Virus record (IMG/VR): IMGVR_UViG_3300036715_002961
Location: 1-64,000 of that record
Source of the DNA: a virus
Direction: 5' to 3' (one strand)
Length of the DNA: 64,000 bases
A program made the position numbers and the translations under genes. Under the pieces are notes generated by a model, which saw only the letters and a list, made by a program, of their open reading frames with translations, was not told where the DNA came from and made no database searches. Below are positions 36,165-59,583 of the stretch, piece after piece; positions within the stretch are counted from its first letter, which is position 1; every line of letters starts with the position of its first letter.

Positions 36165-36196
36165 AAAAAAAGAACCGCCCCGGCGAAGGGGCGGTT
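36165..36196 (-). terminator. Rho-independent terminator between scaffold and capsid genes
   Basis: AACCGCCCC...GGGGCGGTT followed by CTTTTTTT. Confidence 0.8.
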
Positions 36197-36223
36197 TGGA
36201 GAGGAACCCGGGTTCTCGTCCGG

Positions 36224-44382: not shown

Positions 44383-44478
44383 GGGCCAGAAATAGCAAAC
44401 GCCGAGCGGCGCTGTAGGCCGACTCGGCGAATGTCGTCGAAGAGGGGAACCCGGGTTCCCCTCGCGCGCGGGGGCGCG

Positions 44479-45693: not shown

Positions 45694-46407
45694 TCAGTCA
45701 ACGAACCCGCAAAATCGACGAAGCGCCGCCTCGTCGCCGTTGAAAACGTTGAGGTCGCACCAGCCCTCGACACCGGGGCATTTGGGAACGTTCCCCCATT
45801 TGACCGTGACGGGGTCGCCGGCGAACTGGAAAAATGCCCAATCCTCTTCGCTCCACGGTTCGACGACAGGGGGCTTGTCTACGTCGCGATTCACCGGGCG
45901 CCCGGGGTACTGCGGGATCCACAGACGGAACCCGGTCAGTTCGCTAGCGCGGCGGACGAAGGCGGGCTTGAATCGAGCGACGAACGCCTTGCCCGTGTAG
46001 AGCAGGCCGGTGCGACCGGTTTCGATTTTCACCTGGTCGAGAAAGTTGGTCGCGAAGTCGACGACCTCGTCGGGCGTAGCCGAATGACCTTCGAGATCTT
46101 CGAGGTCGAGGCAGGGGGGAAGTTCGTTGGCCGCGTACGGCGCCCGGTAGACCTCACAGAGGCGTTTGGCTTCCTCGCGCGCGTCAAACGCCACCGTCTC
46201 GCCGGGGGCGCGTTCGAGCTGCGCGTAGTGGTAGGAGCCGCCGAGACGACCCGTGCGCGAGACCGCGGCGAGCTGCTCGAATCGAAGGCGGTTCGCCGAG
46301 CTGCGGCCGTCGGTGGATTTGACGTAAACGAAACGGACCGACGCGGGAACCTGGTCCCAGTCGATCCGTTTTTGCCATCCTGAAATGTCGATTCCAAATG
46401 CTCGCAT
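45694..46407 (-). CDS. GH25 muramidase (endolysin)
   Basis: GIDISGWQ, FVYVKSTDG, GSYHY, LDLE, LWIPQY, DLNVFNG. Confidence 0.92.
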   Translation of the reverse strand: MRAFGIDISGWQKRIDWDQVPASVRFVYVKSTDGRSSANRLRFEQLAAVSRTGRLGGSYHYAQLERAPGETVAFDAREEAKRLCEVYRAPYAANELPPCLDLEDLEGHSATPDEVVDFATNFLDQVKIETGRTGLLYTGKAFVARFKPAFVRRASELTGFRLWIPQYPGRPVNRDVDKPPVVEPWSEEDWAFFQFAGDPVTVKWGNVPKCPGVEGWCDLNVFNGDEAALRRFCGFVD

Positions 46408-46424
46408 GAGGTGAGCTTAGCGCA

Positions 46425-46853
46425 CTAGACGGCCGCCAAATCGAGCGCGATGCAGAACGTATGCGTTGCGGACACGAGGCCAGCCGTGGTGGCGGCGATG
46501 AGCGCCACTTCGACGCCACCGCCGCCGATGTTCTGGAGGCGGGTCGGGTCGATTGCACCCTCGGCGGGGACGATGAGCGGGAGCGAGATCCGCTGGTTCT
46601 GCAACGCGTTCACCGCGGCGCCCGTCCAGAACCAGCGGTTTGAGTAGTGGTCGAACATCGCGAGGCGAAGCGGAACTACCGTCGCCCCTTCGTCGGCCGA
46701 GGGGAGCCAAACGGCGCTGACACGCTGAAGGGGGGATCCAACATTGTTTGAGCCGCGATGCGAAACACAGTTGTCCTTGCTCGGGGTTTGATTGGCGAGA
46801 GTATCGGTACCAATGGACGCGAGCGCCCGGTCGAAGTTCTTGTGAAATTTCAT
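46425..46853 (-). CDS. Hypothetical protein
   Basis: Contiguous with the fibre-like genes. Confidence 0.5.
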   Translation of the reverse strand: MKFHKNFDRALASIGTDTLANQTPSKDNCVSHRGSNNVGSPLQRVSAVWLPSADEGATVVPLRLAMFDHYSNRWFWTGAAVNALQNQRISLPLIVPAEGAIDPTRLQNIGGGGVEVALIAATTAGLVSATHTFCIALDLAAV

Positions 46854-46856
46854 GAT

Positions 46857-48293
46857 TCATTCCCAGAAAGAGTTAACCGTCGCGGTACCGCGAATGACCT
46901 GCCCGGCGTTGACCGCACCCGACACGATGCGGAAAAAAATGTGAAGATAGGTACCAGGCTCGACGATGAGGGGGGCGTCGAAGTTGCGGTCGATGTTCTC
47001 CATTTTTTGACCGATCGGAGCAGCGGCCGCGAGCGTTTGGAAGCCGAGCGCTTCGCGACGGGGAGCGCGACCGGCGGCCGCTTCGGCCGTCGCGAGCGAG
47101 ACGCCAGTCGAGCCGACCGCGATACCCCATTGAAGGATCACCGGGGTCGCGGAGTTCGCGAGGCCCGTGTTGACGGTGTCGATCCACATCCCGCGAATAA
47201 TCAGCTTTTTGCCGGGAACCGTCGCAGAAGGCGTGGGAACCTGAAATGCAAAAAGAGCGAAGTCGATGTCGAGAGTCGCCAGAAGTGCGAATGCGAACTG
47301 CCCGCCCTTGGTCGTGTAGCCGGCCGTCGCATTCGCCAGCGTCGCCGCAACGGGGGCCGTCGAGTTGACGTAGTTAGCCGTTTGCCCCTGTGTATGTCCC
47401 GATGCCCCCTGGATACCAGAAAGGCCCATACCGACCTGCTGCGTAGCCCATAGACGGCCAGTTTGGAGATCACCAATGGAGACCGTGTAGCTACCGAGAC
47501 GGAAGCTACAGCCGCTGGACGCAGCGGCGACGATCGCATGTCGAACCGCAAATGGAAGGCTGGCGGATTGGACCGTCGCGGGGAGGTTCGGCGAGCGCGC
47601 GATACGGAGAACTTCCAGATTGTCGATCCAGAACTTGATCTGACCACGCGCGAGGGTGATGGTGAACCGGTACGTTTGCCCCGGGGTCATTGTGAATCCG
47701 GGCACTGGTGCCACGGTTTCGACGGAGTTGTAGTTGACGACACCAAAGACACCGGCCGACGAAATGCGGAAAAAAACACCGTCAGTCGGGGCAAACGGAG
47801 TAGCGCCACCGTCGGAGAAAAGCCCTGCGTCGATGGTCGTGTTCGTTCCGACAACCGCCGAAATGCTTCCCTGGAACTCGACATAGAGGCTCGACGCACC
47901 CATGATGGGAAACGTGCTGTAGGTTTGGAAGCGGACACCCGAGTTAGCCGTGGTTGCCACGGCGCCGTTAAAGATCAGATATTGACCGCCGTAGACGAGC
48001 GTCAGTGTGGTCGCAACAACTCGGTGTTTCGAAGTATTTTGGGCGGTGTAGGCGAAAACCTCTTCGTCCCAAATGGAATCGATGCCCACGCGAAGACGGT
48101 AGTCGTCGCTGGTTTCGGGGGAGACGAGATCGGGGGTTCCGATAATTGAACCGTCGTCATTTTCGCTGACGATTCGGACTGCGCCGACCTGGGTAGGGGT
48201 CGAGATATTCGCGAGATTCACCTTGGCACGAGCGTCGGTATCGACGCCCATCGTGATCCCAGTGGTTCCGTCTGCAATCGGCATTCCTGACAT
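46857..48293 (-). CDS. Fibre / lectin-like beta-sandwich structural protein
   Basis: Thr/Ala/Gly-rich; ConA-like YRFTI...IKFWIDN. Confidence 0.55.
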   Translation of the reverse strand: MSGMPIADGTTGITMGVDTDARAKVNLANISTPTQVGAVRIVSENDDGSIIGTPDLVSPETSDDYRLRVGIDSIWDEEVFAYTAQNTSKHRVVATTLTLVYGGQYLIFNGAVATTANSGVRFQTYSTFPIMGASSLYVEFQGSISAVVGTNTTIDAGLFSDGGATPFAPTDGVFFRISSAGVFGVVNYNSVETVAPVPGFTMTPGQTYRFTITLARGQIKFWIDNLEVLRIARSPNLPATVQSASLPFAVRHAIVAAASSGCSFRLGSYTVSIGDLQTGRLWATQQVGMGLSGIQGASGHTQGQTANYVNSTAPVAATLANATAGYTTKGGQFAFALLATLDIDFALFAFQVPTPSATVPGKKLIIRGMWIDTVNTGLANSATPVILQWGIAVGSTGVSLATAEAAAGRAPRREALGFQTLAAAAPIGQKMENIDRNFDAPLIVEPGTYLHIFFRIVSGAVNAGQVIRGTATVNSFWE

Positions 48294-48294
48294 T

Positions 48295-49914
48295 TTATCC
48301 TCGCAAATATCCTACTTCGACCGAGCCAAATACCTTCCAGTCCGAACGGACTCGAACGGTGTAACCAACTCCCGGGTTGACCTCGAAACGGGCCGTCGCG
48401 GGGAGAATCGAATGCACGAACGCACCGTTGTCTGCGGTAGAACCTTGAAGGTTGGCGACAAAGACAGTCGACGCGGACACGGATGGATCGACGACGACCG
48501 TTTCGGCGAGCTGACCGCCGGAAACGCCGAAGTCGACGGTGACAAATCCGGAGATCCCTCCAGAGGAACCCGGGTTCGAGACCAGCGTGTACGGCGCCGT
48601 TAGGGGGACGGACGCCCACGCCTTCGCGGATGTGTCGGCATTGTCTGTAAACTTGAAGTTAGCAGCGGCGCCCGCAATCGTCGGTCGCTGGGTGAACGCA
48701 AACTGTGCGCCGCCGCCAATGAGCACGCCAGACCCCGCACTCGTTCCGTACGTTGCCCCGGCCGACTCAAGGTTTGAAAACGGCGTGAGAACAATGCCGT
48801 TTAAGACGCCATCAAAAAACCCGCAGTTCTGAATGACAGCCGACGACCCCGTCATGAGTTTGAGGGACTCATTGTAGCGAGTCCCGCCCGCTGTTGCAGC
48901 AAATGTGCAGTCCGCGAAGGTGACGCCATTGCCAGCAAAAACTTCACAGCGGCGAATGGTGCACCAAGTGTAGAAACCATTGAGCGCAGTGGCTTGCGGA
49001 TTCAGCGAATCGAAGTAGCACTTGATGATATTCGCGGAAGATCCGCCAATCATTCCGCTGGAAAATGACCGGACCCTGCACCGCGTCATGACCGCAAAGC
49101 CAAGCGACGGGGCCGTGGGCTCGAAGACGTCAAGGGCGCCATCGGTCCCGATATCCAGAGCGTCAATCAGCAAATATGCTTGTCCGCTCCGGTACTGGGT
49201 GACGCGCAACAATCCCGGATAGACGCGAGGCAAACGCCACTCATCGTAGCTGTCGGTCGGCGGCAACGTCACATCGGGGTAGACAAATGCCGGTGGCACG
49301 AGGTCGACGTCGCAGCCCGCGTCGAGGCCCGCGACGAGCCCAGTCGCCTTGTGGACCCAGTGAAATGCGCCGTTGCTGCCGCGGATCAGCTGCCCCGGAG
49401 CGAGAGGGAAACCGACGGGGGCCGTGACCGAGGCACGCGTGTTGGCGGGCGCGCTGAGCGCCGTTGCCGCGGACCCAGCGCGGGCCGTGGCGACGATACC
49501 GTTGGCGCCAGTGATCGCGAAATACCCGCCGCCGCCGTCGATGCAAATATCGAGGTAGATTGGATCGGTATCGGGAGTGTCCGACATCACGTGCACGATC
49601 GTTTGCTGCGGGATGCGCTTACCATTAAGGCGCGCACCAAGCTCCGCCCACGTGGCGATTGCGGTCCCGCTCGTGAGCCCGTTGTTGGCGTCGTTTCCAG
49701 TCGCGGGATCGATGTACCAGGCGGCTTGCGTACTCACTGCTTGGGGAAGCGGCGTGGAGCCGCCCGACGAAGCGCCGTTGTCTACCCAGGCCGCCCCGTT
49801 GTAGGTCCACAAATGACCATCGCCAGACAACACCACCGTGTCGCCCTTCGCGGGCGACACGGGAAGGGCGGCGACGACGGCCGGCCGAAGGGCGCTGAGC
49901 AGCTCGATGGCCAT
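48295..49914 (-). CDS. Tail spike / fibre with beta-helix-like region
   Basis: LPVSPAKGD...WTYNGAAW; WYIDPATGNDANNGLT; repeating beta-helix-like central part. Confidence 0.65.
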   Translation of the reverse strand: MAIELLSALRPAVVAALPVSPAKGDTVVLSGDGHLWTYNGAAWVDNGASSGGSTPLPQAVSTQAAWYIDPATGNDANNGLTSGTAIATWAELGARLNGKRIPQQTIVHVMSDTPDTDPIYLDICIDGGGGYFAITGANGIVATARAGSAATALSAPANTRASVTAPVGFPLAPGQLIRGSNGAFHWVHKATGLVAGLDAGCDVDLVPPAFVYPDVTLPPTDSYDEWRLPRVYPGLLRVTQYRSGQAYLLIDALDIGTDGALDVFEPTAPSLGFAVMTRCRVRSFSSGMIGGSSANIIKCYFDSLNPQATALNGFYTWCTIRRCEVFAGNGVTFADCTFAATAGGTRYNESLKLMTGSSAVIQNCGFFDGVLNGIVLTPFSNLESAGATYGTSAGSGVLIGGGAQFAFTQRPTIAGAAANFKFTDNADTSAKAWASVPLTAPYTLVSNPGSSGGISGFVTVDFGVSGGQLAETVVVDPSVSASTVFVANLQGSTADNGAFVHSILPATARFEVNPGVGYTVRVRSDWKVFGSVEVGYLRG

Positions 49915-50717
49915 TACGCGATCACCACTACGGTGTATTGATTGAGAGAAGGGGCAGTCGCGAACTTGAGGCGGGTCGTGGTCGTCGAGAGGTTGATCGT
50001 TTCGACGACCACGCGGGCGCCGTCGCTAACGCGATAGACCTCAGCGATGACGTTGGTCGTTCCGAAGGCGTGATTGACGTCGAACTGCGTAGCGGCTCCA
50101 TCGCCGATCGTCGCGCTCGCGCGCTTCGCGAGGCCGGGATAGCCGGCGAGGGTCGACGGGGTGACCGCGCGGACCGCGTCGACACCAGCGTTGACCTCGA
50201 TCGAGGTCGCCAGCTCGACGATGCCGGCGACGGTCGTGGAGGCCGCGGGGACGGCCGCGGTGAGGTTCGTGAACGCGAGGGCCGAGACGTCGACGACTGG
50301 GTTCTGAGTCGACAAAAACCAGCGCGTACCCGCGTTAGTCGAACCTTCTTCGACCGGGACGACTGAGCCTTCAATCTCGGCGGTCGCGTCGAAATCGGTC
50401 GCTCGCGGCATCGCAGCGGCCGCGCCGTTCCAAATGCGAATGCCGTTTTCGGAGGGGGTCGTCTGGTTCGCGAGCAGGACGCGATCGCCAACCGAGAGCG
50501 CGACTCCGTCGAGGCTAGCGCCCGGGGAGGCGATGTTGACGTTTCCCGGCGGTAGGACGCGCACTGCGTCTTTCCAGGCGAGCAGGTTGACCGCTGCGGC
50601 AATGGCCGTGTCGACGTACGATTTGCTGGTCGCGTCGCCCGCGCTCACGGGCGTAGGCAGGTTTGTGATCTTCGCCGAGTTGTTCAGGTCGAAGTCGGAA
50701 AGTACTGAAATCGGCAT
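49914..50717 (-). CDS. Fibre / decoration protein
   Basis: ITNLPTPVSAGDATSKSYVD; WKDAVRV...GDRVLLANQT...ENGI; GIVELATSIEV; C-terminal HAFGT domain. Confidence 0.7.
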   Translation of the reverse strand: MPISVLSDFDLNNSAKITNLPTPVSAGDATSKSYVDTAIAAAVNLLAWKDAVRVLPPGNVNIASPGASLDGVALSVGDRVLLANQTTPSENGIRIWNGAAAAMPRATDFDATAEIEGSVVPVEEGSTNAGTRWFLSTQNPVVDVSALAFTNLTAAVPAASTTVAGIVELATSIEVNAGVDAVRAVTPSTLAGYPGLAKRASATIGDGAATQFDVNHAFGTTNVIAEVYRVSDGARVVVETINLSTTTTRLKFATAPSLNQYTVVVIA

Positions 50718-50722
50718 AGGAT

Positions 50723-50781
50723 CCTCAACTGAGATGGGCGGTACCGGCGAACCTCAACTGAGATGGGCGGTACCGGCGAAC
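50723..50781. repeat. 29-bp exact tandem duplication
   Basis: CCTCAACTGAGATGGGCGGTACCGGCGAA twice, duplicating the gene end FAGTAHLS-stop. Confidence 0.95.
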
Positions 50782-51476
50782 GGCTGGTTGAACCGAACTT
50801 CGAGAACGTTGTTTGAGAGATGGAATATTTCGGTGCTCACAGACAGGCCGCCGACGGACACGACGCCGACGGAGGGGCGAAATCCGAAATTGTGGGCGAT
50901 GGTCCACACCGCGAGAGGATCCGCAGCCACAAAGTCGAGGGTTTTTCCCGACGGGCCGGGCGGCCCTTGGGGTCCGGGGACGCCGCGAAGGGCGTTGGAC
51001 GGAACGACGACCGGCGGGCAATCCGGGGCTGAAATCACTACAACGGGCTCGTCGGGATTCGGATGCGAGTACGTGGGCCCGTTCGCCGCGCACTCGCAAA
51101 TGTGCCCCCCGTCGACGTCGTCGTCGGCGAGAACCACAAACGTCTGAACACTGGTTCGCGCGGGCCCGGTCGGCGTGAATACTTCCAGCCACAAACGCCA
51201 AACGCCGATTTCGTCAAGGTCGCCGTCTTGCAGCTCGCGCGAAAAAACCGCTTGCTGCGAGGTCGCCTCGACCAGGTCGACCGACCAGATTTTTTGCGTA
51301 CCAGACGGTTTCGTGACGTAGGCCGCACCGCCAGTAATCGCCGCCGGGTCGAGCGGCGGGAAGGGCGCGCGCGGGTTCGGCGGCGGGCGCGGAACAACGA
51401 TCGGGATGCGGTAGCCCACGCCCATCGATGGGCGGTAGGCAGCGCCCGGTTTGAGTTTGCAGCCACATGATCGCAT
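50754..51476 (-). CDS. Structural protein: BppU-like N-domain, short collagen repeat, small C-terminal beta domain
   Basis: YVTKPSG...GDLDEIGVWRL; GVPGPQGPPGPSG; WTIAHNFGFRPSV. Confidence 0.65.
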   Translation of the reverse strand: MRSCGCKLKPGAAYRPSMGVGYRIPIVVPRPPPNPRAPFPPLDPAAITGGAAYVTKPSGTQKIWSVDLVEATSQQAVFSRELQDGDLDEIGVWRLWLEVFTPTGPARTSVQTFVVLADDDVDGGHICECAANGPTYSHPNPDEPVVVISAPDCPPVVVPSNALRGVPGPQGPPGPSGKTLDFVAADPLAVWTIAHNFGFRPSVGVVSVGGLSVSTEIFHLSNNVLEVRFNQPFAGTAHLS

Positions 51477-51528
51477 GGGCTGGATGATACTCGACGGGAA
51501 CCCGGGTTCCCGTCGAGCGGGGGCGATT

Positions 51529-51831
51529 TCAGTCGACGCAGCGGACCGTGCCGCAGCTCCGAACCGCGGCGCGAGTAGGCGCAGCGGCGAGGCATTCGGG
51601 CTTGAGGTCGATATGCGTGTTCGCACGGGCGCGAGCGCATACCTGGTAGCAGGTCAAACCCGCGTCGACTGGCGCTAATTCGGGGCAACCGAGGGCGCGC
51701 AGGTTGTCGCAGGCTCGCGCGCAGATAGCGCTAGGGCGCGCGTCTACCTCGTCGGGGGGCGAGGATGGCGAGCCGGCGCACGCGACGAGCAGAAAGGCGA
51801 CCAGGGGGATCGAATCGAAGAGGCGCTTCAT
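51529..51831 (-). CDS. Cys-rich lipoprotein
   Basis: MKRLFDSIPLVAFLLVAC lipobox; eight further Cys residues; ATGA-coupled to the protease. Confidence 0.7.
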   Translation of the reverse strand: MKRLFDSIPLVAFLLVACAGSPSSPPDEVDARPSAICARACDNLRALGCPELAPVDAGLTCYQVCARARANTHIDLKPECLAAAPTRAAVRSCGTVRCVD

Positions 51832-52607
51832 GGGGCGACCTGTACCACGTAGAGATCGCAAGTTCCGGGGTCGAGGATCCGGGCCTCGTCGAACCATACG
51901 AACCCGCCGTCGGCCCACTGGTCACCCCACGAATTGAGGATCCGGAAACGCGTGCCGTTGGCGTCGGTTTCGTAGCCAACGCACGCGAGCATGTGCCGGC
52001 CGAGTTCTTCACCGTCGAAGGCTCCGATGGGCTTTTTGCCGGTCGCGTCCTCGAATGCCTGGTCGACGCGGATCGCGAAAATGACCGGGTAGCCACGCGA
52101 GAGGGCGTGGCGCATTTCATCGACGCGAGTGCGGCCGACCGAATCGATCCGGTACCAGGCGGGGAGACTCGCGGCGCCGCCGGCTTGTAGGACGTCCATG
52201 GGCAGCGGTTCGAGGACGCGCTCGGCGTAGTCGGCGTCGAACGGCCAAACTCGCTCAGGCGGGACGCCGAAGTCGCGAACGGCGCGAAACAGCGTCCGCG
52301 CGGCGGTCCCCTCGTCGACCAGCGGTTCGGAGGCGGGCTTGTCGTAGAGGCGGGCGAGGGCGTAGAGCGCGAGGGCGGATGCCTCGGATCGGAATGCGCC
52401 AAGGCGGCGAAGGCGGACGTCGATCGCCGCAGCGGTGGCCTGGCCGACGCACGACGACGAGCCGAGCTGGTCGCGAACGCGCGCGACGTAGGGGGTCAAA
52501 TCGGCGCGCGCGGGGAGGAACACGAACGCGCCGAAATGAGCGCGGGTTGAGGGGGAATCGTCGGGGGAGTCGTCGATGATGTGGCCGTAGCCGCGTTTGA
52601 TGTTCAC
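51828..52607 (-). CDS. Papain-like (C1) cysteine peptidase
   Basis: DQLGSSSC, GRHMLACVGY, ILNSWGDQWADGGF. Confidence 0.9.
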   Translation of the reverse strand: MNIKRGYGHIIDDSPDDSPSTRAHFGAFVFLPARADLTPYVARVRDQLGSSSCVGQATAAAIDVRLRRLGAFRSEASALALYALARLYDKPASEPLVDEGTAARTLFRAVRDFGVPPERVWPFDADYAERVLEPLPMDVLQAGGAASLPAWYRIDSVGRTRVDEMRHALSRGYPVIFAIRVDQAFEDATGKKPIGAFDGEELGRHMLACVGYETDANGTRFRILNSWGDQWADGGFVWFDEARILDPGTCDLYVVQVAP

Positions 52608-52627
52608 GCGGCTACGGTATCAAATCG

Positions 52628-53398
52628 CTACGTCGCGAACCGATTTAGGCGGACTTCGGCGTGCCCCCCCTTTCGGGGTTTCATGTGGGAAACGAGGTCG
52701 GGGAAGCGAGCGACCAGATCGTCTGCCGCCGCCCTTGAGGTCTCGTGAGAGCGACCGAATGCCATGCAGCCGCCAGCCTCGACGCGGGCGCGGTTTTTTG
52801 GAGCCAGGTCGTTGAAGCGAACCACGGCGCGATCGTCGAGCCAGTAGAAGATGGTGCGCTCAATGTCGTCTTTGACGGGGACGGTCAAGCGATGCCGGCG
52901 GTCGTTGACGATTCCGTGCAAGGTTCCGATGATCGAGCGAAGGTCGAACGTCACGCCGCCGCCCATGAAATAGGGATTGAATAGCGGATACAGGCCCCAG
53001 ATCCGCGCGCGGGCGGCCGCACATACTTCGAACCCGGCATTGAAGACGCCGACCAGGTCGTTGACCTTCGAGAACGCGTTCGAGTTCTTTTCCGGGGATG
53101 CATAGACGGAATCGACGTCGTCGTCGCTTTGAACGATGAGGGCGCCATCTGGGAAGTAGTCGGTGATGAAGTTCCTTTGAGCCGTGAGCCCTTTCACGCC
53201 GACGACGAGTAGCCCATAGGAGTCCCGCGGGACGGCACACGCGTAGGCCGCGCGCTCCGCTTCGTCAGCGACAAAGATGTAAATGCGCTCGCGCTCGACA
53301 CCGCCCGCGCGAAGGGTTTGGAGGGCGCGACAGTCGATCAGGCTCGCGCGTTGGTAGCTCGGAATCGCCACTACCCAGTCAGTCGGATCGGAAATCAT
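52628..53398 (-). CDS. TET-associated GT-A glycosyltransferase
   Basis: AIPSYQRA, QRNFITDYF, QSDDDV (DxD), KDDIERT, GGC. Confidence 0.8.
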   Translation of the reverse strand: MISDPTDWVVAIPSYQRASLIDCRALQTLRAGGVERERIYIFVADEAERAAYACAVPRDSYGLLVVGVKGLTAQRNFITDYFPDGALIVQSDDDVDSVYASPEKNSNAFSKVNDLVGVFNAGFEVCAAARARIWGLYPLFNPYFMGGGVTFDLRSIIGTLHGIVNDRRHRLTVPVKDDIERTIFYWLDDRAVVRFNDLAPKNRARVEAGGCMAFGRSHETSRAAADDLVARFPDLVSHMKPRKGGHAEVRLNRFAT

Positions 53399-54069
53399 TG
53401 GAGGATCCCTCGTACAAGCCAGAATGCTTCCGCGGCCGCTTCCCCGACCTCTTCGCCTCGCGTTTCCGCCCATCGACGTACGCGGTCGACCGTGAGCCAG
53501 GTTCCCGGTCGGGCGAACTGGCTCTCGTAAGCAGCGCACGCGGCGAGCTTCGCGGATAGGTCGGCCGGCGAGAGCGGGAACAGGAACTTGCCGCCGGGAA
53601 GCTCGGGGGCGGGCCATACCGCCGCGTACGGGTATTCGTAGAGGGCGAGCATGACGCCGATGGTCGCCTCGCGCGGGCGTAGGGCCGCGAGAGTCGCGCG
53701 ATAGACGGCCTGGTGGTCTTGGTGGTGAGAGGCGTAGGCGACGAAAATTGACGTCGGGCGGAACTCGTCGATCCGGGCGTCAATCGACCCGACTAGATCG
53801 CGCTGGGCGACCATGTCGAGGCGCGATTGACGGTCGAGGCCCGCGGGGACGATGGCCCAGTCCTCTTCGGCTAGACCGAGGGCGCGCATGGAGGCGCGGA
53901 CCTCGTCGAGCGTTTGAACGGCACGACGCACGGGAGTCTCCCCGAAACTCAGGAAATCGACGCAACATTGCTTCCCTGCGCGCGTTTTGGCGGCGAGAAG
54001 GCCGCCGCAACCGAGCGCTTCGTCGTCGGCGTGGGGGGCGAGAACCAAGATCCGATCATCCCATCTCAT
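53395..54069 (-). CDS. PIG-L/LmbE family N-deacetylase
   Basis: VLAPHADDEALGCGG, HHQDH, K...YESQ, AEAF. Confidence 0.9.
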   Translation of the reverse strand: MRWDDRILVLAPHADDEALGCGGLLAAKTRAGKQCCVDFLSFGETPVRRAVQTLDEVRASMRALGLAEEDWAIVPAGLDRQSRLDMVAQRDLVGSIDARIDEFRPTSIFVAYASHHQDHQAVYRATLAALRPREATIGVMLALYEYPYAAVWPAPELPGGKFLFPLSPADLSAKLAACAAYESQFARPGTWLTVDRVRRWAETRGEEVGEAAAEAFWLVRGILQ

Positions 54070-54971
54070 TCGCCGATCTCCAGTGATTGACCGTCGCGTA
54101 GTTCCTTGAGCCGTTCGTTCGGATCGACGCAATCGAGCATCTTTTCGCGCATGTAATAGACGACGGAAATCCGTTCTGCGTCCTCGGATTCCGAGACCAT
54201 GTCGGTGACACCGTGCCACTCGTGCGAGTTGAAAAACAGCACGTCTCCATCTTGGAGATCGACCGCGACACCGTATTCAGGGAATCCGAGAAGCGCGCCC
54301 GTGTACTTGCCCCGGCGGACCATGGAGATCACGCCGAATCCGTCTTTGAAGTCGCCTTTGTCCGTGTGGGTTCCGCTCGGCGCCGTGTTGTTGTTGACGG
54401 TCAGTGTCGTGAAGGGCGTCCCGGAAATGACGAACTCGGAGCGACAACGATCGCAGGCGGTGAGCTGGGCCTTGTAGCGGCTCGGCGAGGTCCGCTTGAA
54501 GAGGTCCGCGACGTGCGTGATCATCGGCATGATCGTCTGCCACTTTTCAGGCTCTTGCGCATTGAACGAGGTCTCGCGGCAGAACGGGAATCGGCCGCCT
54601 TGGCGATCGAAGTATCCGATGATTGCGGACGCAACAGCCACGAGGTGTCCGTTGGCATCACGCGTCTCTGTGTTTTTGCCAACGGTTCCATCCGCGAATA
54701 CTTTACGGGGACGTTTGGCACCCGCATATGCACCGCGATTCGTCGATTTCCGCTTACGTAGATCGTGGAGGGCGGGGTAAGCGCCATCGGTCAGCTCGAC
54801 GGGGATGGCCCTACGACGGAGCATCAGCAATGGCGCTCCGTCGGGCTTATAAACGTCCGCATCGCCGGTGAGCAGAACGGGGAGGTCGGAGGCCGAAAGC
54901 AGCTTACCGGCGAATACAGACGCACCGCCGGCGACGCGAGAGCGGAGTTGAAGCACGGGGACGGCGGTCAT
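54066..54971 (-). CDS. TET/JBP family 2OG-Fe(II) 5-methylpyrimidine dioxygenase
   Basis: PFTTLTVN, HTDKGD (HxD), GDVLFFNSHEWHGVT, RISVVYYMREKM. Confidence 0.88.
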   Translation of the reverse strand: MTAVPVLQLRSRVAGGASVFAGKLLSASDLPVLLTGDADVYKPDGAPLLMLRRRAIPVELTDGAYPALHDLRKRKSTNRGAYAGAKRPRKVFADGTVGKNTETRDANGHLVAVASAIIGYFDRQGGRFPFCRETSFNAQEPEKWQTIMPMITHVADLFKRTSPSRYKAQLTACDRCRSEFVISGTPFTTLTVNNNTAPSGTHTDKGDFKDGFGVISMVRRGKYTGALLGFPEYGVAVDLQDGDVLFFNSHEWHGVTDMVSESEDAERISVVYYMREKMLDCVDPNERLKELRDGQSLEIGE

Positions 54972-55591
54972 TGGATCGCCTTTCGAAGCGCCGCAAGGAC
55001 GGTTTGAGAGAGGTCGGTCGTTTGGAGCTTCGCCGCGGCGCGCTTCGCGAGGGCGATGAACTCGGTGTGTTCCGGTTTTTGGAACAGAACCGAAACCAGG
55101 TTGACCGTGGTCTTGGCGGGGTCGAGTGAGACAGCTGGGAACCCGGGTTCCCTCGCGGGCGCGGGGACGTCGACGGGAATTTCGGGGATCCCCAGCTCAA
55201 GAAAAAATTCGTCGCCGTCGATGGGGACCTCCATGCCGTCGAGCATCGCGCGCAACAGAGCCGGATCGAACGCGCCGCGCTTCGCGTTGAGTTTGATCGT
55301 CAACGCTTTCGCCTGCACTTCGGTCAGGTCGTGCAGCTCGACGACTGGGCCGACGAGGAAACCGAGTTCCCGGGCGGCGCGCCATCGGTGCTCGCCGTCG
55401 ATGATGAGATCGCGGCGCTCGCCGGTCTCGTCGGTAGCCCAAACGAGCAGGGCCTGGGAGGCGATCCATCCGTCGTTGCGGAGGCCGTGAACAAGCGCGG
55501 CGCGCTCGCGCGCGCTCATGCGGTTGGGGTTCCATGGGTTCGGATTGAGCGAGAGAAGCGGCAGATTTTTGGCGGGTTGCATCGGTTTCAC
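54968..55591 (-). CDS. ParB-like protein (ParB/Srx domain + possible RHH-like C-terminus)
   Basis: PNPWNPNRM, IIDGEHRW, LNAKRG. Confidence 0.85.
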   Translation of the reverse strand: MKPMQPAKNLPLLSLNPNPWNPNRMSARERAALVHGLRNDGWIASQALLVWATDETGERRDLIIDGEHRWRAARELGFLVGPVVELHDLTEVQAKALTIKLNAKRGAFDPALLRAMLDGMEVPIDGDEFFLELGIPEIPVDVPAPAREPGFPAVSLDPAKTTVNLVSVLFQKPEHTEFIALAKRAAAKLQTTDLSQTVLAALRKAIQ

Positions 55592-56250
55592 GTGTCACCT
55601 ACGACGAGCTTGAGGGCCGAGAGGATGGTTTCGGGGACGGGGCGGCCGGCGATCAACGCGCGGAACTCGGCGTGCTCGGGGACGTCGAAAAACAGCTGCA
55701 CGTTGACGACGGCGGGCCGGGTCGACTGATGATCTTCGCCGACGGCGAACACAGGCGCGGCGGCGCCAATGGAGCTTTCCTCAGCCTGGATTTCCAGGGG
55801 CGCGACGGCGAGCATTTGCATGAGGCTCTCGCGCTCGATGCCAAGGTCGAGGCCGAGATCTTCGGATCCGAGGGCGAACTGAATCTCGCGAACAAGCGCT
55901 TCGAGACTCTCGCGTTTGAAGGTCCCGCGCTTCGAGTTGAGCTTGATCGTGAGCTTCTTTGCGTCGTTTTCGGAGAGGCCTTCGAGGCGGACGATCGGCC
56001 CTTCAACGATGCCGAGGCCGGTCGCCGCGCGCCATCGGTGCTCGCCGTCGATGATGAGATCGCGGCGCTCGCCGGTGGCGTCCGTGCTCCAAACGAGCAG
56101 GGCCTGGGAGGCGATCCAACCGTCGTTGCGAAGGCCAGCTTCGAGGCTCTCGCGCTCGAACTCGGTCATGCGGTTAGGGTTCCACGGGTTCGGCCGGAAC
56201 TGGTCGAGCAGTTCGTTCTGGCAGTTGCCGATGATTTTCTGGGTCGTCAT
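55588..56250 (-). CDS. ParB-like protein, paralogue
   Basis: PNPWNPNRM, IIDGEHRW, LNSKRG. Confidence 0.85.
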   Translation of the reverse strand: MTTQKIIGNCQNELLDQFRPNPWNPNRMTEFERESLEAGLRNDGWIASQALLVWSTDATGERRDLIIDGEHRWRAATGLGIVEGPIVRLEGLSENDAKKLTIKLNSKRGTFKRESLEALVREIQFALGSEDLGLDLGIERESLMQMLAVAPLEIQAEESSIGAAAPVFAVGEDHQSTRPAVVNVQLFFDVPEHAEFRALIAGRPVPETILSALKLVVGDT

Positions 56251-56283
56251 AGGTTGCGCCTTCGGGTTGATTGCATTTGCGGG

Positions 56284-56412
56284 TTAGTTCACGAAAAAAG
56301 CCGAAATCCGTTGAAAATCGGCTCGGTCGAGTTGTACGAATCGGGCGAGAGCTTCGACGGCGGGCCGATTCGTTCGCCAGACGCGCTGGATCCATTCAAG
56401 TTTGATTTGCAT
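56284..56412 (-). CDS. Small hypothetical ORF (42 aa)
   Basis: MQIKLEWIQRVW; fills the gap between ParB-fold genes. Confidence 0.3.
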   Translation of the reverse strand: MQIKLEWIQRVWRTNRPAVEALARFVQLDRADFQRISAFFVN

Positions 56413-56854
56413 CGGGGGGCGCGTCGAGGTCGATGAGGCGGGCCGAGACAAAATCGCCGCCGGCGAGCCACGCGGCGGTGGTCCGATGATGGCCGTCGTG
56501 GAGGTAGTTTTTGCCGCCGGCGCGCACCACGATCGGGACGTCGACGAGGGCGCCATGGCCGACGGCGCGGCGGCCGGGGACGATCTCGACGTCGCCGCGC
56601 TCGTACTGCATGAGGCGCGAGTCGCTGACGGTTCGTTGAATCGCCATGAGCGAGGCGATCTCGACCTCGACGACGGGGGCCGTCAGCGTGCGAGCGGCGA
56701 TGGCCGCGTCGGCGATGAGCGCCTTGTAGGCATCGCGGTCGGCGACGGGGAACGGGACCAACAACCGACCGCCGTCGGCCTCGTTGAGGTAGCGGGCGGG
56801 GTCGGGTAGGACGCCCCGTTGAGCCCATAAAACGAATGCAGAACGCGGTTTCAC
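56396..56854 (-). CDS. ParB/Srx-fold protein
   Basis: LMAIQRTV...PIVV...YLHDGHHR. Confidence 0.7.
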   Translation of the reverse strand: MKPRSAFVLWAQRGVLPDPARYLNEADGGRLLVPFPVADRDAYKALIADAAIAARTLTAPVVEVEIASLMAIQRTVSDSRLMQYERGDVEIVPGRRAVGHGALVDVPIVVRAGGKNYLHDGHHRTTAAWLAGGDFVSARLIDLDAPPDANQT

Positions 56855-56863
56855 GCCGCGACC

Positions 56864-57199
56864 CTAGCGAGGAGTCGCAACGCTTGTAAACCAGTCTCCA
56901 AACGCCTCCCCGTGGCGCCACGCGCGGACGATGACAAATGCGGCCGAGTCGAGTCGAGCGCCCGTCGGTTCATCGCCGACCAGCTGCCCCGCGAAAACCA
57001 TAGTCGACGCGAACAGGTGCGGCGACGGGCGGGTTCCTCGACCGATGCGCGCCTCCATGAGCAGAACCCATGCGCAGGCGAAGTTCGCGAGGGCCGGGTC
57101 GTTCTGCGAAACGTCTTGGTACCAAAGGATAAGGGCTTGAAAATCGGTCAATTTTTCGTCCCGCGGGTGGGAGGGGAAAACCAGCCGCCACCGGTCCAA
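56864..57199 (-). CDS. Hypothetical protein
   Basis: Protein-like ORF; C-terminal AWRHGEAFGDW. Confidence 0.5.
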   Translation of the reverse strand: MDRWRLVFPSHPRDEKLTDFQALILWYQDVSQNDPALANFACAWVLLMEARIGRGTRPSPHLFASTMVFAGQLVGDEPTGARLDSAAFVIVRAWRHGEAFGDWFTSVATPR

Positions 57200-57549
57200 T
57201 GACCGGCGAGCAGCGCGGCGGCGAGGCCGTCGACCTCGGCGTCGGAAATGGTGTCGTCGAGCGGCTCGGGAAACGACGCTAGCAGCTCGTTGAGCGCGTT
57301 CACGAGACTGGCGACCGCGGATCCCTCGTCGCGTGCGCGGATGTTGAAAAGCTCGTGGTCGAGGGCGCGGCGACCGGTGCGGCGATGGACCTCGGAAACG
57401 ATGAGTGCGAGCAGCACGGCGTCACCACTGCCCGTGATGCGAACGTCGGTCTCGACGCGGTAGGCGGCGTGGTTCCGCGGGCGCGTAGACGCCATGCGGC
57501 GGGCGTGGATGCGCCGCAATCGTCGCAGAACGTCCGCCAGCTCGGTCAC
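57148..57549 (-). CDS. Hypothetical protein
   Basis: GTG start at 57549 overlaps the upstream stop (GTGA). Confidence 0.45.
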   Translation of the reverse strand: MTELADVLRRLRRIHARRMASTRPRNHAAYRVETDVRITGSGDAVLLALIVSEVHRRTGRRALDHELFNIRARDEGSAVASLVNALNELLASFPEPLDDTISDAEVDGLAAALLAGHWTGGGWFSPPTRGTKN

Positions 57550-57872
57550 ACGCGCCACACGACTGCGACGCAAACGATGGACGCGATGACCGAGCAAAGG
57601 ACCGCAACGACGAAAACGATCGTCGCGACGCCGACCAGCGATCGAACATCGGGCGGCGGGGGCGGGGTATGCGACGAGAGGCGCGCCCCTAGCTCGCGGA
57701 TCAGGTCCTTGAGGCTCAGGACGTCGCGCCGAAAAAGCTCGCTCTGGTCGAGAGCCGTCTGCGAAATCCGATGGGCTTCCTCGCTGCGGCGGAGCGCTTC
57801 GGAGGCCGTTTTGAGAGCCGTTTGGGAGACCTGGTGGACCGAATCGAGGTCGACCTTTGCGGGCGCTTGCAT
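57546..57872 (-). CDS. Coiled-coil protein with C-terminal hydrophobic anchor
   Basis: LVGVATIVFVVAVLCSVIASIVCVAVVW; leaderless-type start. Confidence 0.6.
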   Translation of the reverse strand: MQAPAKVDLDSVHQVSQTALKTASEALRRSEEAHRISQTALDQSELFRRDVLSLKDLIRELGARLSSHTPPPPPDVRSLVGVATIVFVVAVLCSVIASIVCVAVVWRV

Positions 57873-57888
57873 GCGTAGACCTTACTCG

Positions 57889-59583
57889 CTAGCGCCCGCG
57901 AATGGCAGGGCGAACCTTGATGCCGCCGGCGCGGTTCGGATCATTGACACCCGCGCCCGGGGTCTTCGAGGGGAGAGCACCGAATTTCCGCGCCTGCTCG
58001 CGAGCGAACCAACATGCCATGAGGACGTCGCCCGTATGGCGTTCGGGGCGGTAGTAGAGGCATTCGTCGATCCATCGCTGCACCTTCGGATCGCAGCGGC
58101 CGAGTTTGTCGTTCGGGATGATCCAAGCGCCGTTGTAAAGCTCGACGAAAATCGAGAGAACGCCGTGCTCGGGGTGGGCCTTGTTTCGGCCCGTCGTGTG
58201 GGGACGAATCGGGATAGAAACGTCGGCCTCACGCGTGAATTGCAACAAAAGATCCTGCGCGGCGTTGTTCTCGACGCGAACGATCAGGCCGTACTTTTTG
58301 GCGTAGGCGGCAAGCTTGCGGACGATCGTGGGGCCGTCATACTTGCCGTAATCGATGTCGACGATCAGGCGGTGGCCGGTCGAAAGGACCTCGAAAATGA
58401 AGAACGCGACGTCGTCGCTGCCCTCGTTGCGAGAGACCGCAATGTCGAGACCGCCGTAGGTACCCTTGGGGTTGCCAGTCCAACGGCCAAGTTGGTGATA
58501 GCCGAGCATGCGCGCGTTGCGCTTGCAGTTCTCAACCCATTCGGCTTTGCAGTAGGCGGATCCGTCGTCGCGACAGACGCTGTAGAAGAGGCGGAGCCGC
58601 TCAATGTCGATCGGATGGTCGCGGCGCAACTGCGCTTCCCAGTCGCCGTTGAAGCGCTCAGGCCATAGCGCCGACGTCTCGGTGTGGGCGCCGCCGGCGA
58701 CGGCCGGGTTGATGCGCAAACGCTCGCCAAACGTGGGATCTGCGCCAGCGCCGGGGGCCGGGCGGACCATGGGATGATCCCAATATTGGCGATTGAAGGC
58801 GTACTCGTCGCCGGCCTTGTCGTTGACGTAAATGTGACCGTCGACCTGCATCCGCATAGTGGGCCATCCAGCTTTTTCCATGGAATGAAGGAGGTCGTCG
58901 GGATGCCAGGCCGAGTTGGTCAGGACGACCGAGCCGCGGGGATTGACCGATTCAGGCTCGACGCGCGAGTTGATGACCTGGGTAAATGTCTTGATGAGAG
59001 CCTCGCGCTGGTCCTTCGTTTGAGTGTTGCTCTCGTTCAGGAGGTCGTCGCCGAAAAGATGGTCGTAGCGACCGCCAGCGATGCCTTTTGAGTCGATGCC
59101 GAACGCGGTGAGCGTGTCGTCTTTGGAGCGCTTCGAATGCTTGACACGAAGCTTGGTCGAGGTCCATGTAGAGCCGGGGCGGACCTTCCCGTAGGAGAGG
59201 AATTTGAACGCCTCGCTACCCTCGATGTAGGACTTGACTAGACCGACGATTTTCGCCGCTTGGGCCTCGGTGGCCGAGAAGACGGCGACGCGGACGGTCG
59301 GATCGCGAGCGATCAGCCATAGAATGTACGCGACAATCGAGAAGGTTTTCGTGTGGTTAATCGGCAGGATGAAGACGCTCTTCCGATGATGGTTCATGAA
59401 ATCCATCATCAGAACCTGATGCACGACGGGGCTGACGAACGCGCCGCTTAGCTCGTCTGTCATGACCAGGCCGGCGAACGTGGGCAGGTCGTTCTGCGCG
59501 ACCTCTCGAAGCTCGTACAGCGCACGCAACGCGTCTTCTACGTCGGCCTGGGAGACAACGGTCGGCGACCTCGAAACGTCCAT
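57889..59583 (-). CDS. Terminase large subunit
   Basis: Atypical Walker A LPINHTKT, GGRYDHLFGDD, SAWHPDDL, LWPERF, nuclease GLDIA, VENNAAQ, GDVLMA. Confidence 0.9.
   Translation of the reverse strand: MDVSRSPTVVSQADVEDALRALYELREVAQNDLPTFAGLVMTDELSGAFVSPVVHQVLMMDFMNHHRKSVFILPINHTKTFSIVAYILWLIARDPTVRVAVFSATEAQAAKIVGLVKSYIEGSEAFKFLSYGKVRPGSTWTSTKLRVKHSKRSKDDTLTAFGIDSKGIAGGRYDHLFGDDLLNESNTQTKDQREALIKTFTQVINSRVEPESVNPRGSVVLTNSAWHPDDLLHSMEKAGWPTMRMQVDGHIYVNDKAGDEYAFNRQYWDHPMVRPAPGAGADPTFGERLRINPAVAGGAHTETSALWPERFNGDWEAQLRRDHPIDIERLRLFYSVCRDDGSAYCKAEWVENCKRNARMLGYHQLGRWTGNPKGTYGGLDIAVSRNEGSDDVAFFIFEVLSTGHRLIVDIDYGKYDGPTIVRKLAAYAKKYGLIVRVENNAAQDLLLQFTREADVSIPIRPHTTGRNKAHPEHGVLSIFVELYNGAWIIPNDKLGRCDPKVQRWIDECLYYRPERHTGDVLMACWFAREQARKFGALPSKTPGAGVNDPNRAGGIKVRPAIRGR

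Follow-up and report, generated by a model that had tools for sequence, protein, structure and literature searches.

The stretch of DNA considered here (the window, 64,000 nt) corresponds to the first 64 kb of the IMG/VR record IMGVR_UViG_3300036715_002961, an 88.8-kb phage genome estimated to be 95% complete and denoted G000 below. Nearly all genes of the window lie on the minus strand, including a tightly packed run of five genes that encodes, in this order, two ParB-like proteins (ParB2 and ParB1), a dioxygenase of the TET/JBP family, a PIG-L/LmbE-type de-N-acetylase, and a TET-associated glycosyltransferase (TAGT) (Table 1). Copies of a palindrome, GGGAACCCGGGTTCCC, are dispersed through the same DNA, one of them within the gene for ParB1. 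The sequence-only reading of this DNA had proposed that the ParB pair recognizes these palindromes and thereby directs the modifying enzymes to phage DNA. The comparison with related phages argues for a different arrangement, in which the ParB pair is probably a duplicated activator of the adjacent dioxygenase that needs no dedicated site, and the palindromes belong to a separate, lineage-wide system.

The ParB pair and its associated enzymes

The two ParB-like proteins are clearly paralogues, as had been noticed from the sequence: both match ParB families (Pfam ParB_N, and PHROG at 1e-15 to 1e-16), and 94 of their 198 aligned residues are identical (47%, E 1e-55). The Atlas neighbors of ParB2 are viral ParB_N clusters. 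The gene for ParB1 overlaps those of ParB2 and the dioxygenase by 4 nt each, and all of them are co-oriented. Both proteins were aligned with 12 relatives linked to a TET gene (TET-type ParBs hereafter), and ParB1 retains all 28 invariant columns of this 14-sequence alignment in an open reading frame (ORF). In the corresponding tree, which is weakly resolved, ParB1 and ParB2 group together (support 86/80), a placement that points to a tandem duplication, probably one confined to this phage. No branch of the tree is longer than that of ParB1 (1.56 vs. a median of 0.96), whose C-terminal strand is divergent.

The architecture of these proteins departs from that of a canonical ParB. A profile of the 14 sequences found Myxococcus ParB (7bnk, E 1e-4) as its best match among PDB sequences, with 1vz0 at E 0.004, and the 7bnk alignment extends into a short remnant of the first part of the helix-turn-helix (HTH) domain, which is acidic throughout the 14 sequences and lacks its second helix in ParB1 (alignment gap at columns 160-171). 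A Pfam search of the ParB proteins found no HTH family. Thus, the earlier statement that a central HTH is not recognizable stands for an intact domain, but it has to be tempered by this remnant. The strand-helix-helix ends described earlier are found in 14/14 aligned proteins, as a hydrophobic strand around VQLFF followed by two helical segments. Their likeness to ribbon-helix-helix (RHH) proteins is faint, with a weak RHH_7 match (Pfam, E 0.018) in one of eight C-terminal pieces and nothing in the other seven, and a weak match of the profile to the RHH structure 1x93 (E 0.95). Read directly from the alignment, the outward face of the strand appears largely hydrophobic. Moreover, the lack of ParA noted for the window holds for the entire 88.8-kb record, where AAA_31 gave no match and CbiA a single sub-threshold one (17.3 bits) inside a 533-aa ORF.

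The dioxygenase is 41-49% identical to ParB-linked homologues in four related records (G003, G016, G018, and G020). The PIG-L and TAGT proteins are 57% and 55% identical, respectively, to their homologues in G020, whose cassette has the order ParB-TET-PIG-L-TAGT, while the cassette of G003 reads ParB-TET-AADT. No C5-cytosine methyltransferase (PF00145) was found in the 88.8-kb record at E 0.1, in a search whose control was positive in 10/14 genomes, and on this ground thymine is probably the substrate of the dioxygenase, although host methylation leaves a cytosine route possible.

A pattern scan of IMG/VR for ParB relatives returned 365 stretches, the best 80 of which were examined as ParB loci. 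In 12 of these 80 a TET-type ParB gene is immediately followed by a TET gene, and among the 12 closest loci (L055-L066) TET stands beside ParB in all except L056. Double ParBs recur, in tandem in L062 and L064, on either side of TET in L063, and also in the records G017 and G018, while two ParBs flank a different cassette in G019. In G003, whose ParB-TET module is located in the replication region, the homologues of the genes that border the five-gene run (the 152-aa gene of Table 1 and a C1 peptidase gene) are separated by only 1.4 kb, which contains no cassette; since the flanks are nearly adjacent there, the five genes look like a mobile cassette that has entered the space between two core genes. 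A blastn search with positions 52000-58000 found no match in an annotated phage collection. Two relatives may be broken or rearranged. In L074 (9932-10786), the N-domain and linker of a ParB share one open frame with a C-terminal TET/JBP portion, as might result from gene fusion, from a deletion, or from misassembly, and the TET/JBP gene of G017 may carry a frameshift, since its match (29646-30106) is broken into two pieces that overlap and differ in frame.

Table 1. Features of the ParB-dioxygenase locus (positions in the window)
Feature	Position	Strand	Basis or remark
ParB2, putative TET-type ParB-like activator paralogue, 220 aa	55588-56250	-	Pfam ParB_N E 6.1e-5, 23.4 bits (below cut-off); PHROG ParB-like 7.3e-16
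ParB1, divergent TET-type ParB paralogue, 207 aa	54968-55591	-	Pfam ParB_N E 7.8e-6, 26.3 bits (exactly the cut-off); PHROG 4.7e-15
TET/JBP-family 5-methylpyrimidine dioxygenase (5mYOX), probably thymine-acting	54066-54971	-	Pfam Tet_JBP E 4.4e-27, 94.8 bits vs. cut-off 34.9
PIG-L/LmbE-type de-N-acetylase	53395-54219	-	Pfam PIG-L E 1.5e-14
TET-associated glycosyltransferase (TAGT)	52628-53617	-	Pfam TAGT E 9.3e-12
Palindrome GGGAACCCGGGTTCCC, one copy in the ParB1 linker	55137-55152		gapped, variable stretch of the alignment
152-aa protein with DGHHR motif, possibly of ParB/sulfiredoxin (Srx) fold	56396-56854	-	apparent lineage core gene beside the cassette; not a cassette member

Palindromes and cassettes across the lineage

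The dispersed palindromes are real. At up to two mismatches, GGGAACCCGGGTTCCC has 14 matches in the window, spanning positions 967 to 61305, where 0.05 are expected, and 0/100 shuffles reached that number; 13 exact copies of its 12-mer core are present in the window, and the whole record holds 20 sites at the same tolerance of two mismatches. The copy reported within the linker of ParB1 was likewise confirmed. The exact 16-mer occurs in 18 IMG/VR stretches, 12 of which come from one 98.4-kb record, G001, that is syntenic with G000 at 30-57% protein identity.

Relatives found through the major capsid protein and ParB define, by their major capsid protein, a lineage of seven near-complete genomes (~90-100 kb), each of which has its own perfect palindrome without spacer, 16-26 bp long and present in 18-30 copies. 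These palindromes do not follow the modification cassette. All seven genomes have them, whereas TET/JBP is found in four, namely G000 (20 copies), G003 (20), G016 (19), and G018 (18), and is absent at E 0.01 from the other three, namely G001 (21 copies, with the same 16-mer as G000), G010 (26), and G019 (30). The incomplete G017 (83%) contains 16 copies of the core of the G018 palindrome. Conversely, G020 (59 kb, 59% complete), which has the cassette closest to that of G000, contains no palindromic 12-mer more than once. The expectation that such palindromes would accompany ParB-TET clusters across phages was not borne out, as a repeated 14-bp palindrome is present in 4/12 ParB-TET loci and in none of the other eight, four of which look like one phage type and one of which is only 5 kb long. 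Even within the lineage, G000 is the only one of the four TET-bearing genomes with a palindrome inside the cassette; G003, G016, and G018 have none there.

The ParB proteins do not follow the palindromes either. G003, G016, G020, and L055 share one C-terminal strand motif, although their palindromes are of two unrelated kinds or missing. The only ParB of G001 is 26-30% identical to ParB1 and ParB2 in the N-domain alone and belongs to a subfamily shared with G010. G000 itself has a third kind of ParB besides its two TET-type ones, at record positions 81303-81965 (minus strand; L135:17303-17965), i.e., a ParB_N gene (E 1.8e-9) of another subfamily that lies in the replication module, outside the window, and is syntenic with ParB genes of G001, G010, and G003. 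Thus, G000 and G001 share an identical 16-mer and no ParB subfamily, and G018 and G010 share a palindromic 12-mer core, while the former has TET-type ParBs only and the latter only the other subfamily. Relatives that keep the palindrome and lack ParBs had been named in advance as evidence against recognition by the pair. G001 and G010 are such relatives as far as TET-type ParBs are concerned, although both carry a ParB of another subfamily.

The ParB-like genes of the lineage usually stand beside a gene for a DNA-acting enzyme. In G010, a genome without TET, a C5-cytosine DNA methyltransferase gene (E 1e-62) is found directly upstream of the ParB gene of the second subfamily (L052:16191-18412), and in G001 the neighbor is an HNH gene. 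In G019 (46210-52444; L154:6210-12444), two ParBs flank a 445-aa protein, a GT1 glycosyltransferase, a TAGT-like protein, an FkbM methyltransferase, and a radical SAM/SPASM protein. G019 was dropped as a clean TET-less control on account of this flanked glycosyltransferase/FkbM/radical-SAM cassette, and its 445-aa protein does not resemble TET (hhalign probability 0.1).

The placement of the palindromes is far from random. Sites were counted as lying after a stop codon when they fell within 25 nt downstream of the stop of a gene of at least 80 aa, and both this count and the coefficient of variation (CV) of the gaps between sites were compared with random placement. The sites after a stop codon number 6/20 in G000, 7/21 in G001, 6/17 in G003, and 9/26 in G010, as against random means of 0.47-0.69, and the observed count was not reached in 2000 trials for any of these genomes. 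Moreover, the sites are more evenly spaced than chance would give, with a gap CV of 0.57 (P 0.005), 0.61 (P 0.009), 0.38 (P 0.0002), and 0.52 (P 0.0004) in the same order, compared with 0.95-0.96 at random. Since there is no intergenic space among the overlapping cassette genes, the copy in the ParB1 linker would fit a system that places one site every few kb wherever it is tolerated.

As to their nature, intrinsic terminators were considered and rejected: none of the seven copies between 36000 and 55900 is terminator-like, and terminator calls were not above those of shuffles. In two stretches of the window (36173-36217 and 44398-44460), a palindrome is followed 5 and 31 nt downstream, respectively, by a separate terminator-like hairpin (36196-36173 and 44413-44398) whose coding-strand tail is T-rich, and, therefore, the palindrome itself does not look like a terminator. 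Plain RNA hairpins were also set aside, because the palindrome is perfect through its center and spacerless in 7/7 genomes; a free RNA loop would not need a perfect center, which favors recognition at the DNA level. A genome contig scan for the 16-mer as a host repeat gave, among the matches listed, single sites in unrelated taxa and no enrichment, which proves little. An all-versus-all comparison of the ORFs of the seven genomes found no protein family, among those present in at least three genomes, in which G001 is clearly the best partner of G000 (largest ratio 1.12), as would be expected of a protein that follows palindrome identity. A small protein with a Cys-rich N-terminal part and a sigma-70 region-4 HTH (E 1.8e-8), encoded at 78923-79333 in G000 and 81520-82158 in G001, was found exclusively in these two sharers of GGGAACCCGGGTTCCC (2/6 records searched), and can be regarded as a lead only.

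The genes next to the cassette complete the picture of the locus. The large terminase gene (57889-59583; PHROG terminase, 1.3e-39) is followed downstream by three small ORFs, the 152-aa gene, and then the five-gene run. G001 has its large terminase match in two parts (query residues 13-82 and 76-554) within one 913-aa frame (87388-90066; L024 and L025), which suggests an insertion such as an intein. A 111-aa ORF that adjoins the cassette (56864-57199) has a sub-threshold match to Tad4, a Thoeris inhibitor (E 1.1e-4, 22.9 bits vs. a cut-off of 25). Homologues of the 152-aa protein, 35-43% identical to it, are encoded by G001, G003, G010, G016, and G018, which makes 6/7 lineage genomes when G000 is counted, and its gene thus appears to be a core gene of the lineage beside the insertion point and outside the cassette. 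It had been taken for a third gene of ParB/Srx fold. A gene is indeed present beside the ParBs, but its fold likeness is sub-threshold only: ParBc_2 matches were obtained for 5/6 homologues, all below the cut-off (best E 0.0012), and the family matched Helicobacter pylori ParB 4umk at E 0.014 and, weakly, sulfiredoxin 6ky4 at E 0.53.

Role of the ParB pair

A precedent for an activating ParB was provided by O'Toole et al. (PNAS 2026, PMC13229309), who described a subclass of phage thymine dioxygenases that needs a neighboring ParB homologue composed of a nucleotide-binding domain and a C-terminal dimerization domain, with no DNA-binding domain. The enzyme 5mYOX176 requires ParB176 on double-stranded DNA, and together they convert 25-35% of the thymine of E. 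coli genomic DNA into 5-hydroxymethyluracil (5hmU) and also act on the DNA of lambda and phiX174, none of which involves a dedicated site (PMC13229309). In the experiments described there, mutation of nucleotide-binding residues did not abolish the activation by ParB and no stable complex was trapped; the best structural relatives of those ParBs were Myxococcus and Caulobacter ParB (PMC13229309). By analogy, ParB1 and ParB2 would each consist of a ParB-type nucleotide-binding domain, a degenerate acidic HTH remnant, a flexible linker, and a small dimerizing C-terminal domain, and their homo- or heterodimers may hold the dioxygenase on double-stranded phage DNA, or activate it there, with no dedicated site being required. 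Thymine would be hydroxylated by this enzyme, and the product would then be decorated by the glycosyltransferase (TAGT) and the deacetylase (PIG-L), perhaps as an amino sugar. The copies of GGGAACCCGGGTTCCC would belong to a different system of evenly spaced, phage-specific palindromes that occupy whatever positions the DNA tolerates, which in an overlapping operon may be a disordered linker. We consider this combined reading probable.

Several points weigh against it. ParB2 falls below the Pfam ParB_N cut-off, the presence of two ParBs is left unaccounted for, and the placement statistics come from four genomes and from gene calls based on our own picks of ORFs and third-position GC content (GC3). 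In E. coli, most of the published ParB-dependent pairs yielded <5% 5hmU, clade 2 ParBs did not activate their partners, and the authors leave open whether ParB recognizes a DNA sequence or structure (PMC13229309), so a site requirement is possible in some clades. The cassette also mixes traits of two subclasses, as the ParB-dependent one was linked mainly to kinases, amidotransferases, and AADTs and glycosyltransferases to the ParB-independent one (PMC13229309), and its likeness to 5mYOX clade C1 is one of gene content and order. Furthermore, all seven lineage genomes have some ParB-like gene together with palindromes, so that an argument from absence is unusable against ParB proteins in general; as the seven belong to one lineage, this co-occurrence is not independent evidence.

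The original proposal, i.e., that the pair loads at the palindromes through its strand-helix-helix ends, spreads along the DNA, and recruits the TET and glycosyltransferase enzymes so that only phage DNA is modified, draws on that same co-occurrence, on palindromes that are genuine, 16 bp long like parS, and evenly spaced, on a C-terminal pattern that resembles RHH proteins, and on the many published pairs that are nearly inactive on E. coli DNA (PMC13229309). Nevertheless, ParB176 exerts its activating effect on DNA from E. coli, lambda, and phiX174 alike (PMC13229309), the palindrome-rich G001 and G010 have neither TET nor a TET-type ParB, and the closest cassette, in G020, does without a repeated palindrome. 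Moreover, G000 and G001 combine one palindrome with different ParB subfamilies, neither the C-terminal strand nor the helix remnant co-varies with the palindrome sequence, and the largely hydrophobic outward face of the strand and the acidic remnant seem ill-suited to such loading. Thus, the tie between ParB and the modifying enzymes claimed by the sequence-only reading survives by way of the homologous published systems (PMC13229309), whereas the reading of palindromes by the pair is very improbable. A generalized version, in which palindromes load HTH-less ParB clamps that deliver to each phage's own DNA whatever modifying enzyme it has (TET, C5-methyltransferase, glycosyltransferase/radical-SAM, or HNH), would be a modular means of self-addressing, and we give it the slightest of chances. 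A small probability is kept for a site-dependent clamp because of the ParB-like gene in all seven genomes, the many nearly inactive published pairs, and the DNA features left open by their authors (PMC13229309).

It is distinctly unlikely that the ParB pair is a mere neighbor of the dioxygenase gene with an unrelated job, such as partition, transcriptional silencing, nuclease activity, or anti-defense. ParB-fold proteins of phages are indeed diverse and often orphan (PMC12704722), some relatives with this domain are methyltransferase fusions (L070; phrog_498), and the ParB gene of G001 adjoins only an HNH gene. However, the co-orientation and 4-nt overlaps with the dioxygenase gene, the ParB-then-TET order in 12 loci of phages with different backbones, the lack of ParA and of an intact HTH, and the ParB dependence demonstrated experimentally in homologous pairs (PMC13229309) all speak for a functional connection. 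Somewhat less unlikely, yet still doubtful, is that only one of the two proteins is a working activator and ParB1 a decaying or neofunctionalized duplicate. The long branch of ParB1, its missing second remnant helix, its divergent C-terminal strand, and the palindrome accepted in its linker would fit such a fate, but its frame is open with every invariant column kept, and the recurrence of double ParBs in L062, G017, and G018, as well as on both sides of the G019 cassette, suggests that pairs are useful. A duplicated activator of the dioxygenase that works without a dedicated site thus remains the preferred interpretation of the ParB pair.

Comparison with known systems

With the ParABS system and the CTP-gated ParB clamps of Myxococcus and Caulobacter, the locus shares a homologous N-terminal domain and the presence of 16-bp palindromes in the genome. 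However, no ParA is encoded here, only an acidic remnant of the HTH is left, and the sites are distributed genome-wide rather than clustered and do not follow the type of ParB. Another parallel may be KorB of plasmid RK2, a clamp of the ParB family by which the partner KorA is kept on DNA (cited in PMC13229309). Like KorB, the ParB pair may lengthen the residence of a partner on DNA. KorB has its own sites on RK2, its own HTH DNA-binding domain, and a role in repression, whereas no HTH DNA-binding domain is seen here and the partner is an enzyme.

The closest published analogue of the palindromes is the 17-bp dyad-symmetric repeat of Cluster O mycobacteriophages, of which >30 near-invariant, phage-specific copies are found genome-wide, partly intergenic, at gene starts, and within genes; a dimeric binding protein has been suggested and the function is unknown (Cresawn et al. 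2015, PMC4351075). The palindromes described here differ from that repeat in that they have no spacer and vary between related phages, and about a third of them lie at most 25 nt after a stop codon, with even spacing. They represent an unexplained lineage-wide feature that deserves a study of its own, set apart from the modification cassette.

The enzymatic part of the cassette resembles the synthesis of base J in trypanosomes, where a JBP thymine hydroxylase is followed by a glucosyltransferase (PMC13229309). In both cases a TET/JBP dioxygenase and then a glycosyltransferase would act on DNA after replication, but here the setting is a phage, a ParB would act as helper, and a deacetylase is added.

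The most direct counterparts are the 5mYOX enzymes of clade C1 with their cognate ParBs, of which 5mYOX176/ParB176 is an example. Common to both are a co-oriented ParB gene directly upstream of that for the TET/JBP dioxygenase, the lack of a neighboring C5-methyltransferase gene, the hypermodification enzymes encoded downstream, and, to judge by the alignments, a protein in which a short helical segment and a linker connect a nucleotide-binding domain to a C-terminal domain, apparently with no DNA-binding domain. As the coupling of ParB and TET is established in these homologous published systems, the coupling proposed here is not new, and ParB dependence was measured there, whereas we infer it here. 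What is modestly new is the duplicated ParB and its combination with TAGT and PIG-L. The main text of PMC13229309 mentions no tandem ParB, paralogue, or heterodimer of the kind that the two tandem proteins of G000 may form, and TAGT and PIG-L genes lie downstream in place of those for kinases, amidotransferases, and AADTs. The duplication could help to answer whether ParB serves as a dimeric scaffold around the dioxygenase, and the pairing of TAGT with PIG-L hints at a base modified with an amino sugar.

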